DNA from: Candidatus Fraserbacteria bacterium
GTDB lineage: Bacteria; Bipolaricaulota; Bipolaricaulia; RBG-16-55-9; DRXL01
Assembly (NCBI GenBank): GCA_947085185.1
Contig: CAMTVK010000002.1
Span: 181,995 to 245,994, forward strand
Reading direction: 5' to 3'
DNA: 64,000 nt
Every line of letters begins with the position of its first letter. The first letter of the stretch is position 1. The notes below the pieces were generated by a model. It had not been told where the DNA came from and did not search any database. It saw nothing but the letters and a program-made list of their open reading frames with translations. A program made the position numbers and the translations under genes. This document shows, piece by piece, positions 29,859 to 32,597 of this stretch.

Positions 29859-29903
29859 GCTGGTGCGGGCGCGGCTGGAGAAGGCGAGGAGCGTGTAACG
29901 ATG
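29859..29903 (+). repeat. 45-bp direct repeat copy 1 (stop + RBS + ATG unit)
   Basis: GCTGGTGCGGGCGCGGCTGGAGAAGGCGAGGAGCGTGTAACGATG, identical to 31768-31812. Confidence 0.95.
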
Positions 29904-31544
29904 CAAGACTGGAAGTGGCTCAAAACTCAACAAGAAGGACAGTTCTTTGAGCGCAAGTCTTGCTATGACCGCTCCGGCGCACGACCCAAACTACGCCCCG
30001 CCCGTGAGGTAGCTCACGATATTGCTGAGACTTTGGCAGCGATGGCGAACGCCGACGGGGGCGCCCTTGTGTTGGGCATTGAAGACGATGGCACACCGAC
30101 GGGAATGAGCTATCCCCCTGATCGTTTAGATGTTATCTTAAGAGCTCCTGAGCGCTTAGTCCAGCCGCCGCTCAGAGCGCATCACCAGTGGATAGAACTC
30201 GATGGGGTCAGAGTCCTCCTCTTCGAGGTGGATTGGAGCCCGGAGGTTCACCAACTGAGCGATGGCCGGTATCTCCTGCGCGTGGGGGCCAAGAACTTGC
30301 CATTTCCGGCTTCGGATATTGCAGGAATGAAAGAGGGCAAACGCCGCCGGGTTACTGAATCCCGGCTCATTACCGAAGCTTCTCTACAGGATTTGGATCC
30401 GGCGCTCTTTGACGAACTCCGACAGAAAACGGGACTGAGTCTTTCGAATCAAGAGCTCCTTCAGCATTACCGTTTGGCGGAAGCGCGGAATGGGAGGCTT
30501 GTGCTCTCCCTGGCCGGGTTACTCCTCTTTGCCAAAGATCCCCTCCGCTGGCACCCGGCGTGCTTCGTGGACTTCGTCAAATGGGAAGGGACTGAGCGGC
30601 GGTTTGGCACCGCCCTCAATGTGGTGAAGCGCGCCCGAATGGAGGCGCCTTTGCCCAAGCTCATCGCACAGACATTTGCCACCATCCGGCCTTACATCCG
30701 GGAGCGTCAGCAGCTCGTTGATTTATTCTTCGAGGAACGATTTGAGTATCCCACTTTCTCCTGGCAAGAAGCGATCATTAATGCGGTGGCTCATCGAGAC
30801 TATGCTCTGGAAGGAACGCCAATAGAAGTCTGGATGTTCGATGACCGCCTGGAGGTGCGCAGCCCTGGAGAACTCGTCGAGCCGGTAACGCTTGAACGCC
30901 TTACTCGCCGCGAGCGCGTCCACGCCTCACGCAACCCAAGGATTGTGCGGGTATTAACCGACTGGGGATACATGCGGGAACTGGGGGAAGGAGTCCCCCG
31001 CATGTTCGAAGTTATGGAGCGCGAAGGATTAAAGCCTCCGGAGTTCCAGATGGAGGCGGGCGCGATCTTCACCGTGATTCTGCGCAACACGCCTGTCTTT
31101 TCCGCGGAGACCATGCGCTGGCTTGAGCAATTCACGGGGCAGGACCTCACCGCAAATCAGAAGCGTCTCCTGGCCTATGCTCACGCGCACGGCGGCCGAT
31201 TTACCAGCCGGGCTTATCAAAAATTGGTCGGAGTAGACCTGTATACGGCTTCGAAAGACATTAAGGATCTGATTCGTAAGCGCATCGTTATATTGCCTCG
31301 CAAGGGGGGGCGGGTATATGAGCTTGTGTCCACCCCTATGCAAGTCACCGCCGAAAAACCACCAGAGTATGCTGCTTTAGAACCGATTCTGGCAAAGAAA
31401 GGATACGTCAAAAACCAGGATATTCGTGAGGCGCTGGGGGTCACCCTTGCCCGGGCAAGACGCATTGCCCACGAGTTAGTCTCGCTGGGCTGGCTACGGC
31501 CAGAGGGCGAAAAGCGGGGCAGGCGGTATGTTCCGTCCCGTTAA
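29901..31544 (+). CDS. AlbA_2 (Schlafen-like) + HATPase_c_4 + HTH protein
   Basis: EGQFFERKS, AMANADGG.LVLGIEDDG, EAIINAVAHRDY, SPG, RNPRI, LGEGVPRM. Confidence 0.88.
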   Translation: MQDWKWLKTQQEGQFFERKSCYDRSGARPKLRPAREVAHDIAETLAAMANADGGALVLGIEDDGTPTGMSYPPDRLDVILRAPERLVQPPLRAHHQWIELDGVRVLLFEVDWSPEVHQLSDGRYLLRVGAKNLPFPASDIAGMKEGKRRRVTESRLITEASLQDLDPALFDELRQKTGLSLSNQELLQHYRLAEARNGRLVLSLAGLLLFAKDPLRWHPACFVDFVKWEGTERRFGTALNVVKRARMEAPLPKLIAQTFATIRPYIRERQQLVDLFFEERFEYPTFSWQEAIINAVAHRDYALEGTPIEVWMFDDRLEVRSPGELVEPVTLERLTRRERVHASRNPRIVRVLTDWGYMRELGEGVPRMFEVMEREGLKPPEFQMEAGAIFTVILRNTPVFSAETMRWLEQFTGQDLTANQKRLLAYAHAHGGRFTSRAYQKLVGVDLYTASKDIKDLIRKRIVILPRKGGRVYELVSTPMQVTAEKPPEYAALEPILAKKGYVKNQDIREALGVTLARARRIAHELVSLGWLRPEGEKRGRRYVPSR

Positions 31545-31730
31545 GTTATTGAACAGCCTCATCTCCATATTGAACATCGTCATTTTGTCTTGGTCATTAT
31601 GAGGATGTTCAATAACAATGCTCGTTAACGGCTCTGTCTAGCCGGCTAGACGTCTAGCCGCTAGACAAGATGTTCAATAACAATGCTCGTTAACGGCAGC
31701 GTCCAGCCAGCTGGACACCGACGGCTGGAC
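31545..31730. repeat. Complex intergenic repeat knot
   Basis: 18-bp inverted repeat (31545-31562 / 31599-31616, 1 mismatch), 29-bp direct repeat (31604-31632, 31669-31697), GTCYAGCC(R)GCTRGAC palindromes. Confidence 0.85.
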
Positions 31731-31767
31731 GACAACGGCCCGAGCGACTCCAGGAGGCGGTGGTGGC

Positions 31768-31812
31768 GCTGGTGCGGGCGCGGCTGGAGAAGGCGAGGAG
31801 CGTGTAACGATG
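31768..31812 (+). repeat. 45-bp direct repeat copy 2
   Basis: Identical to 29859-29903; ends on the RAYT ATG. Confidence 0.95.
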
Positions 31813-32436
31813 GGGTACGATCCGGAGAAACACCACCGGCGTTCGATTCGGTTGCCGGGATACGACTATGCGAGGGCAGGGGCGTATTTTGTCACCATCT
31901 GCACCTACCAGCGGGAATGCCTGTTCGGTGAGATCGCTGGTGGCGACATGCGGCTGAACCCGTTAGGTCAAATCGTTCAGGAAGAATGGTTGAAAACTGC
32001 CGTCCTGCGCCCTCGGGTAAGATTGGACACGTTTGTGGTGATGCCGAATCACGTTCATGGCATCATCATATTGAACGATGATCGTGGGGGCACGGATGAT
32101 CGTAGGGGCACGTTGCAACGTGCCCCTACCATTGAATTACGGACACATCATCCATTGCAACGTGCCCCTACAAGGGAACGATTTGGGCAACCCACGTCCG
32201 ATTCCATCCCCACGATTGTGCGCCTGTTCAAATCTGCCACGACCAAACGAATCAATGAAATGCGCAAAACGCCCGGCGTCCCCGTCTGGCAACGCAATTA
32301 CTACGAACACATCATCCGCACCGCCGACGAACTGTACCGCATCCAGGAATACATCGCCGCCAACCATCTCCGCTGGCACCTGGATCGGGAAAATCCACAC
32401 CGCACAGGCGAAGATGAATGGGAAATCTTCGGCTAA
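31810..32436 (+). mobile_element. REP-associated tyrosine transposase (RAYT, Y1 HUH)
   Basis: RRSIRLPGYDY..GAYFVTICT, MPNHVHGII (HUH), WQRNYYEHIIR, YI..N; REPs inside and downstream. Confidence 0.92.
32102..32171. repeat. Full REP (32102-32129) and half REP (32155-32171) inside the RAYT gene
   Basis: GTAGGGGCACGTTGCAACGTGCCCCTAC and TTGCAACGTGCCCCTAC. Confidence 0.92.
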
Positions 32437-32444
32437 ATGGTCAA

Positions 32445-32471
32445 GTAGGGGCACGTCGCAACGTGCCCCTA
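32445..32471. repeat. REP immediately downstream of RAYT
   Basis: GTAGGGGCACGTCGCAACGTGCCCCTA (one internal substitution). Confidence 0.9.
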
Positions 32472-32597
32472 GCCAGGCCAGGAGCGTGTGATAAACTGAG
32501 CAAGCTGAGGTGATTTGCCATGACCAGCATGCGGCGAGACGGTCTTCGACGCGCTTTGGGCCTGACGGCGGGCGCTTCCTGCGTGCTTTGCGTCATA

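Follow-up and report, generated by a model that had tools for sequence, protein, structure and literature searches.

How does one short sequence come to stand, letter for letter, in front of two unrelated genes? The question is raised by a 64,000-nt stretch of a Candidatus Fraserbacteria genome (assembly GCA_947085185.1, contig CAMTVK010000002.1, positions 181,995 to 245,994 of the forward strand), hereafter called the window, in which the letters of 29859-29903 recur exactly at 31768-31812, as a 45-nt direct repeat with a spacing of 1909 nt. The first copy leads into the open reading frame (ORF) of an AlbA-type ATPase and the second into a gene resembling those of the REP (repetitive extragenic palindromic)-associated tyrosine transposases (RAYT). 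The genome is a metagenome-assembled draft of 1.72 Mb in 32 contigs (96.8% complete), and these two are the only occurrences of the repeat in it with up to nine mismatches allowed. A reading of the window from its letters alone (the sequence-only reading) had proposed that accessory genes are captured, stacked or excised there by recombination through the conserved 3' tail of a restriction-modification (RM) gene, in an integron-like array with no integrase. According to our analysis the unit is an RM gene end, and the data suggest that this end is a recurring landing site for new genes.

Read in frame, the unit is LVRARLEKARSV followed by TAA, then CG, then the ATG of the downstream gene. Its main part is the 3' end, 12 codons and the stop, of an Eco57I/PglX-family Type IIG RM-methyltransferase gene, for which we use the working name gene X; 2 nt and the ATG of the next gene complete it. 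A 3.3-kb region compared with relatives gave short matches to the unit alone in other genomes. In the relative G013 (locus L015), a 1247-aa ORF ends in the unit (..VFDVLGLTPGEREAVYEAVVNLVRARLERARSV); it carries the Pfam domains Eco57I (3.2e-31), MmeI_Mtase and N6_Mtase, and its best PADLOC model is REase_MTase_IIG (168 bits). A database search with its last 198 residues matched 186 proteins of ~1200 aa, whose source names include "Eco57I RM methylase domain protein" and "BREX-1 PglX" and whose genera include Chloroflexus, Roseiflexus and Thermogutta. The tail block was recognisable in all 27 homologues fetched, with the last ~45 residues nearly invariant. This C-terminal block of the ~1240-aa protein (..HQPDRRALDEVVFDVLGLTAGEREAVYEAVVxLVRARLEKARSV) hardly changes across phyla and lies directly behind the swappable target-recognition domain (TRD): two homologues, P0005 and P0025, have the N-terminal ~1000 residues and the tail in common and differ in the TRD. 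The sequence-only reading had linked the peptides to the C-termini of some Type IIG enzymes, and it was correct, since intact copies elsewhere end in the unit sequence.

It had also placed the source gene outside the window. A tblastn search of all 32 contigs with the 1247-aa protein found no full-length gene X in the window or elsewhere in the genome; besides the remnants, the best match was 28% over 288 aa on contig C8. The NCBIfam model BREX-1 MTaseX scored 49 bits against a cut-off of 500, and because the BREX models stay far under their cut-offs we call gene X Type IIG and Eco57I/PglX-like. Its neighbour in L015 is a SNF2/DrmD-like helicase. Such helicases (best PADLOC model 'HKD+Snf2') were seen beside gene X or a remnant at L015:10366-12282 (minus strand) and L029:5105-8320, and L029 additionally carries a PLD-like protein nearby. 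Instead of being a solitary Type IIG enzyme, gene X may be part of a DISARM-like or PLD-helicase system.

Further pieces of the tail are present in the window. Copy 2 extends upstream as ..QEAVVALVRARLEKARSV (QEAVVA), as had been described. Behind the RAYT-like gene, a degenerate third copy of 17 nt (AGGCCAGGAGCGTGTGA, 32475-32491) belongs to a 17-mer with three matches in the window at no more than one mismatch, against none in 100 shuffles; next come TAAACTGAG, which relatives (L015 and other loci) usually have after the stop, and then a ribosome-binding site, an ATG and ~7 codons. Fragment 4 (32541-32572, VFDAL/GLTAG) aligns with the intact gene tail of L053 over 31 columns with a 2-nt gap, and its score of 36 was reached by none of 500 shuffles (null maximum 30). 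Its reported 1-nt slip is a frame shift of +2, equivalently -1. GAGGAG stands 9 nt ahead of the ATG that opens the ORFs 29901-31544 and 31810-32436, and the remnants also give both cargo genes their ribosome-binding site and ATG context. In these respects the sequence-only description of the locus holds, including the identities of the AlbA-ATPase and the RAYT-like gene.

Remnants of the tail show a common asymmetry. Among 24 remnants in the order, the right end is kept in 19 (query position >=113), while left ends are scattered over positions 3-91. The kept right end is the stop codon, often plus TAGACT or TAAACT; many different downstream sequences begin straight after TGATAGACT and others straight after the stop. 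Decay of the remnants proceeds via internal deletions.

The unit is not peculiar to this genome. A query of 131 nt from the tail matched in 16 of the 35 genomes of the order; G012 holds five copies on one contig (locus L011), and G013 holds gene X and two more copies. The exact 25-nt pattern was found at 8 loci of species-representative genomes, labelled Ca. Fraserbacteria (2 contigs), Ca. Bipolaricaulota, Armatimonadota, Thermodesulfobacteriota, Gemmataceae and Bacteroidota, and at 27 loci of metagenomes. After removal of entries with identical 100-nt contexts, 66 distinct units remained in 35 loci, a count that is not one of independent events because some loci are near-duplicates from different assemblies. 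Only 5 of the 66 units end an ORF of at least 700 aa. Two or more units occur in 15 loci, on the same strand in all 15, and a contig labelled Bacteroidota (L034) carries gene X and six further tails.

A wide range of genes lies between units: VapBC, FitA-VapC, an HTH-ImmA and DUF4411 pair, DUF2283 pairs, ParDE, HicA/HicB and DUF3800, and also Mrr fragments, a RAMA protein, RAYT and even a 900-aa M1 peptidase. Gene X, or a gene X cut by the contig end, is followed directly by VapBC (L015), DUF3800 (L050) or a DUF2283-type pair (L053, L061). A unit confined to this place, or one that leads into the same genes every time, would have spoken against the sequence-only reading; neither is the case. 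A same-strand ORF of at least 60 aa begins within 95 nt of 43 of 53 remnants, against a fraction of 0.70 at random positions; the claim that units stand ahead of genes more often than by chance was dropped on this comparison, a test that is powerless in GC-rich DNA.

Within the genus, the arrays occupy at least two chromosomal spots. One lies between a PD40 protein gene and M1/S49 peptidase genes (G012, G002, G004, G013, G015, G007), another behind aconitase (the window, G008, G015), and G020 provides a third. The first spot is empty in the genome studied here (C3:177130-177260), where the PD40 stop is followed by a ~40-nt 3' remnant of the M1 peptidase gene and then by S49. In relatives a unit stands ahead of the M1 peptidase gene too, which makes that gene look like cargo.

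Cargo blocks common to different arrays start and end at units, and they do so in different chromosomal spots and phyla. A block of L030 and L034 is 90% identical over 720 nt, the DUF2283 block of G012 (L011) is ~85% identical to both, and a DUF3800 block is 81% identical over 881 nt between the two hotspots. A two-gene cassette, encoding a 106-aa protein and a DUF2283 protein, was seen at L030:774-1485, L034:5571-6286 and L011 (oriented) 5854-6158; it starts inside the unit and shows 85-90% DNA identity across contigs labelled Thermodesulfobacteriota, Bacteroidota and Ca. Fraserbacteria. This likeness suggests that the cassette may have moved across phyla recently, and the binning of the shorter contigs is possibly wrong.

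The two cargo genes of the window have a history of their own. In the metagenomic locus L047, an intact gene X (1237 aa) is followed by TAG-AG-ATG and an AlbA homologue. The locus is 80.0% identical to the window over 1433 nt, with homology starting at 29857, inside the unit region of copy 1, and the two AlbA proteins share 77% aa identity; a second, decayed tail (LDKVVFEVLGLSAGEREAVYEAVVELVRARLAK..) lies behind the L047 AlbA gene. The 151 genomes of the phylum contain no close AlbA homologue (seven match at E<=1e-30, the best non-self matches with 28-33% identity), from which we conclude that the tail-AlbA-tail module came by transfer. The AlbA segment is a single ORF with AlbA_2/HATPase_c_4 domains and holds no transposase or integrase.

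The RAYT-like protein matches Pfam Y1_Tnp with 26.1 bits (cut-off 23) and NCBIfam REP_Tyr_transpos with 69.6 bits, under the cut-off of 80 and in two stretches; a six-frame search of the genome gave no Y1_Tnp match at E<=0.001. The match is split and falls under the NCBIfam cut-off because of an in-frame REP insertion: palindromes (GTAGGGGCACGTTGCAACGTGCCCCTAC and a half-copy) lie in frame within the ORF (32087-32178), with the HUH-type motif VMPNHVHG ahead of them and the C-terminal part behind. At this insertion, one contig of run X5 lacks 49 and 230 nt. The REP family has 16 copies in the genome (<=4 mismatches), on contigs C2 and C3, with window copies at 32100, 32155, 32443 and 34455.

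A tail-RAYT junction of the same form (stop, 2 nt, start) is found in G007, at the other hotspot and with 123 of 159 positions identical, as well as in L033, L050 and L051, and a REP lies between tail and RAYT in L034. RAYT homologues were present in 14 of the 47 unit-bearing loci searched, some of which are the same DNA sampled twice, and a RAYT-like gene stands behind tails in at least four lineages. Two further RAYT paralogues in the genome (C20:18356-17787 and C1:53931-53326, 56-58% aa identity) have no unit ahead of them and each start 0-1 nt after the stop of an upstream ORF. A RAYT-like lineage with 44-65% aa identity was observed directly behind Type IIG tails on contigs labelled as several phyla (the window, L021, L033, L034, L036, L039, L045, L050, L051, L052, L054, L058). 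A unit of tail fragment, first ~25 nt of RAYT and REP palindrome is repeated in tandem three to five times in L039, L052, L054/L057 and L058, and in L034 a REP follows all but two of the seven tails.

The proposal that accessory genes are captured at the tail must be divided in the light of these loci. It is supported in part, as the unit recurs before many genes in same-strand arrays. AlbA and RAYT, however, are not random captures; because they adjoin gene X or its tails elsewhere, the pattern in the window partly reflects inherited gene order and the loss of gene X, and not capture at this place.

The repeats on the two sides of a single cassette are closer to each other than to other units. 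Those around the window AlbA gene are identical at 45 of 45 positions, those around FitA-VapC in G012 at 103 of 110, and those around ParDE in G013 at 50 of 62. In the FitA-VapC case 27 nt are local non-tail sequence, so this repeat was made on the spot. The ParDE cassette is absent at the same place (VapC-unit-M1) in G012, G004 and G002, which are other species at 67-87% identity; for the window AlbA cassette no empty site was found at the same locus. Units of one array differ by a mean of 7.4 mismatches per 40 nt, against 9.3 between loci. On the within-array value, in-situ tandem amplification was rejected as a general origin, with the exceptions of the three sister pairs and of a segmental duplication in L034, where one three-tail block is duplicated. 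The L034 tails come from different alleles, since their TRD-end flanks differ.

Between loci, only 5 of 2085 unit pairs are identical over 40 nt, and the nearest foreign unit differs from that of the window by 2 nt. Given that the two window copies are identical while so few foreign pairs are, and that the AlbA module is old (20% from L047), we read their identity as a probable trace of recent recombination or conversion between the two tails in this lineage.

The 57 window proteins scanned, namely the seven of the variable stretch and all 50 further ORFs of at least 90 aa, include no recombinase, and none was found in the arrays examined; the expected lack of an integrase was borne out to this extent. 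Phage_integrase-family matches in the genome number three, on contigs C17 and C30 only.

We lean, at slightly better than even odds, towards an account in which the arrays result from repeated insertion of cargo behind the gene X stop with duplication of part of the tail, followed by recombination between tails and loss of gene X. Small, mostly promoter-poor cargo units (toxin-antitoxin pairs, DUF3800, an AlbA-type ATPase, a RAYT-like gene) would be inserted time and again straight behind the stop codon. Each insertion would duplicate a variable length of the tail (~15-135 nt), so that gene X is kept whole and the copy displaced downstream is truncated on the left and complete on the right, and repeated insertions would stack tail-cargo-tail-cargo on one strand. 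The tail copies would recombine with one another and with incoming DNA by the general recombination of the host, through which cassettes could be added, removed and homogenised. Remnants would decay, and gene X would often be deleted or replaced, here possibly by a MAD2/MAD5-like RM pair and an HNH gene. Insertion with duplication and exchange between tails presumably both took place, and the enzyme presumably was one of host recombination or repair.

Several observations weigh against this account. The arrays and the unit-bounded cargo blocks support the earlier idea of recombination through a conserved RM tail, but excision was not seen: no excised circle, empty-site read or alternative join appeared. 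The eight public runs found consist of short contigs only; the contigs of four of them, compared with window 25000-36000, break at the repeat and none joins copies 1 and 2, though such contigs cannot reveal rare forms. The origin of the first duplication is left unexplained. Judging by L047, G007 and L033, the AlbA and RAYT junctions are old and inherited, and the window layout needs just one recent event between pre-existing tails plus the loss of gene X. The 7.4 against 9.3 mismatches per 40 nt indicate that general homogenisation is weak and that many units have different sources. The 3' remnant of the M1 peptidase gene, an unrelated deleted gene, survives in the same genome, so deletions leave gene ends behind without any special mechanism. 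Nor does the synonymous-site identity mark the tail as a DNA-level site: in five genes it was 0.70 over the last 45 codons and 0.58 elsewhere, with other blocks reaching up to 0.82, and a DNA-level constraint on the tail was rejected since its value is within the range of other conserved blocks.

Part of this evidence would fit a history in which the tails never moved cargo. Operons of gene X and a partner would have arrived independently or by allele replacement, and after deletion of the gene bodies the last 30-60 nt would have been kept for their expression signals, namely the GAGGAG ribosome-binding site in the window and maybe a weak promoter in the canonical form (TGGAGA-17 nt-TGATAGACT, with an extended -10). 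AlbA and RAYT genes that natively adjoin gene X or its tail in other loci, the retention of CTGGAGAAGGCnnGGAGCGTGTGATAGACT in all of the shortest remnants, internal deletions of the decay type, the M1 peptidase remnant that outlived a deletion and the divergence of most units within an array, as large as that between loci, are all in keeping with such passive survival. We nevertheless hold it to be rather unlikely, as arrays of 5-7 units would demand that gene X had stood at one place four or five times in succession, and neither the sister repeats with non-tail local sequence (103/110) nor the 45/45 identity in the window, set against only 5 identical pairs among 2085 foreign ones, would be explained. 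The putative promoter matches 8 of 12 consensus positions plus TG and was not listed in L011 or the window by a scan that considers consensus match only, and an ORF behind the unit is not clearly commoner than at random positions. That either copy is a product of assembly or of chance carries almost no weight with us. The assembly is a metagenomic draft and short k-mer contigs of public runs do break at the repeat, but contigs of four other runs contain both repeat contexts at >=99% identity, the junctions of tail to AlbA and tail to RAYT recur in independent assemblies, and the number of chance matches expected is zero.

The clustered right ends could instead point to a site-specific system acting in trans, in which the 3' end of the tail (..AGGAGCGTGT-stop-TAGACT) would be the core site and the enzyme, a tyrosine recombinase or an HUH-type RAYT, would be encoded elsewhere. 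Cassette movement would then be of the kind known from staphylococcal cassette chromosome (SCC) elements at rlmH, from islands targeting tRNA genes or ssrA, or from integrons. Right ends of remnants cluster at the stop or 6-9 nt beyond it while left ends vary, at least ten different downstream sequences start right after TGATAGACT or TGATAAACT, RAYT homologues are present in 14 of 47 loci (resampled DNA included), fragments of tail, RAYT and REP are repeated in tandem in several loci, and the genome has the three Phage_integrase-family matches on C17 and C30. Yet no recombinase lies in or beside any array examined, the unit has no inverted repeat or hairpin, several junctions fall at the stop codon itself and not at +9, and TGA-TAG and TGA-TAA are tandem stops, so that the conservation to +6 may be related to coding. 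Toxin-antitoxin arrays of Fraserbacteria and Bipolaricaulota lack REP, the two RAYT paralogues elsewhere in the genome lack a preceding unit, and duplications of 15-135 nt, or of 110 nt with non-tail sequence counted in, do not resemble a fixed att core. We consider a trans-acting system improbable. A true integron, or a cluster of attC sites lacking integron-integrases (CALIN), with IntI nearby or lost, deserves scarcely any credence, even though small same-strand cassettes rich in toxin-antitoxin genes are separated by a repeated element of 30-130 nt. The element is conserved in sequence, as a coding tail, and not in structure; ten folds (five units, both strands) gave z values of -1.50 to +1.81 and no attC-like hairpin, and no integrase or IntI-type gene lies in the window or the arrays. 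The integron reading was rejected on the folds and the absent integrase, and of the "integron-like" label only an analogy is left. Repeated insertion behind gene X, with duplication of the tail, remains the account that we favour.

The features of the variable stretch and its borders are listed in the following table.

Features of the variable stretch and its borders (positions in the window)
Feature	Position	Strand	Basis
Aconitase gene, conserved left border of the variable spot ('hotspot B')	23321..26074	+	Pfam Aconitase in homologous loci L014, L025
HSDR_N_2 + N6_Mtase protein (MAD2-like methyltransferase-nuclease)	26059..27993	+	Pfam; PADLOC MTase_II
S (specificity) subunit, MAD5-like	27990..29456	+	Pfam Methylase_S; NCBIfam MADS5 414 bits, over cut-off 400
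Small HNH endonuclease gene, 134 aa	29443..29847	+	Pfam HNH 5.7e-13; stop 11 nt ahead of copy 1
Copy 1, 40-nt gene X tail remnant (LVRARLEKARSV + TAA) + CG + AlbA ATG	29859..29903	+	Sequence, tails of relatives
Cargo 1, SLFN_AlbA_2 + HATPase_c_4, winged-helix C-terminus	29901..31544	+	Pfam
Post-AlbA spacer, two repeats spaced 65 nt, each followed by a palindrome	31545..31744	+	Repeat scan, 88% identity
Copy 2, longer tail remnant (..QEAVVALVRARLEKARSV + TAA) + CG + RAYT ATG; last 45 nt as copy 1	31745..31812	+	Repeat scan, relatives
Cargo 2, RAYT-like gene, in-frame REP insertion ~32087-32178	31810..32436	+	Pfam, NCBIfam
REP palindrome GTAGGGGCACGTCGCAACGTGCCCCTA, abuts copy 3	32443..32475	not assigned	Repeat scan
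Copy 3, 17-nt tail end AGGCCAGGAGCGTGTGA + post-stop TAAACTGAG	32475..32499	+	Shuffle test, relatives
Stub of lost cargo gene: GAGGTGA ribosome-binding site, ATG at 32521, ~7 codons	32500..32540	+	Layout as cassette starts in relatives
Fragment 4, upstream part of gene X tail (VFDAL/GLTAG), 2-nt indel, 3' part missing	32541..32572	+	Gapped alignment
ZIP transporter gene, right border; then MsrAB, NMT1 as in G008	32598..33386	-	Pfam

The variable stretch is bounded by aconitase on the left and ZIP/MsrAB/NMT1 on the right. The homology of L014 and L025 to the window stops at about 26060-26068, and that of L025 restarts at 33479. The HSDR_N_2 and N6_Mtase protein scored 609 bits with NCBIfam MADS2, under the cut-off of 720; its gene is an RM gene distinct from gene X and is now placed upstream of copy 1. 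Together with the S subunit and the HNH gene it forms a compact RM-like trio (26059-29847), beside which no other MADS genes were seen, and the likely start ATG of its first gene overlaps the aconitase stop (ATGA at ~26071). The spacer repeats at 31604-31651 and 31669-31716, between AlbA and copy 2, are two copies of GATGTTCAATAACAATGCTCGTTAACGGC. A dispersed element was ruled out for them, as the 29-nt core is unique to this place in the genome; an 11-nt piece (CAATGCTCGTT) also stands behind a unit in G012 (L011). At 36680-38215, 4 kb downstream of the array, the window encodes a protein of 511 aa that has a DndB (DNA-sulfur modification-associated) domain.

Islands at the 3' end of a conserved gene, such as the staphylococcal cassette chromosome elements (SCC/SCCmec) at rlmH and those that target tRNA or tmRNA (ssrA) genes, use a dedicated recombinase and a fixed core. 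The arrays described here resemble them in that direct repeats of the target 3' end bound the elements, elements are stacked in tandem, some lack a recombinase of their own and the left copy lies in the intact gene. They differ in having no linked recombinase, repeats of ~15-135 nt and cassettes of 0.6-1.9 kb. With integron arrays and CALINs they share small same-strand cassettes, many of them toxin-antitoxin systems, and a recurring element behind which most cargo starts after 10-30 nt, whereas IntI and the attC hairpin are missing and the element is a coding remnant conserved in sequence.

The arrays of the window more closely recall the RM-linked "insertion with long target duplication" of the Kobayashi group, a resemblance that we put forward as an analogy. 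That report describes repeats of ~25-95 bp, several of 45-47 bp, frequently placed across a start or stop codon, in inserts that have no mobility gene (PMC2853133). Likenesses to those cases are an insert without mobility gene, direct repeats of tens of bases, the RM-linked setting and repeats across a start or stop codon that keep the neighbouring gene whole (PMC2853133). Direct repeats of more than 30 bp are likewise present here (45/45; 103/110 in L011; 50/62 in L015), and the AlbA segment contains no transposase or integrase. In the cases presented there, each target is unique and the insert is an RM system (PMC2853133); here, one conserved gene tail has been reused many times in several phyla and stacked into arrays, and the inserts, AlbA-ATPase, VapBC and ParDE among them, are not RM systems and mostly are toxin-antitoxin or other defence genes. 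The same source treats TRD swapping in Type IIG and Type I S genes via conserved flanking segments, with allelic TRD diversity (PMC2853133). The gene X tail is such a segment 3' of a variable TRD (P0005/P0025), but TRD swaps replace sequence cleanly, whereas in our arrays genes other than RM genes come to lie behind the gene and copies of the tail build up. In literature listings and the beginnings of abstracts we found neither arrays made of PglX/Eco57I tail remnants nor a connection between RAYT and RM gene ends, and an earlier description is possible.

A bolder view, to which we give little credit, is that the PglX/Eco57I-type tail serves as a cross-phylum docking site of a recombinase-free cassette system, in which defence and toxin-antitoxin cassettes, each with a piece of the tail at its end, would pass between unrelated members of the same communities and would be stacked or lost through recombination at the tails, with a RAYT-like HUH enzyme possibly making the nick from which insertion starts. 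If true, RAYT would have a role beyond the spreading of REP, and an integron-like gene-capture device would have been made from a gene end.

The finding touches the question of how small systems enter and leave defence islands when no mobile-element genes are visible: one conserved gene end marks cassette borders in several phyla. Even if the remnants are merely decay products, they would still mark the site of a former Type IIG gene. If the tail is a recombination handle, it would be a searchable signature for new defence cargo, because anything between two tails is a candidate, and it would offer a testable mechanism of cross-phylum exchange in hot-spring-type communities. For insertion with long target duplication there would then be a natural example in which a single sequence has been the site of many independent events, which would make the mechanism tractable.

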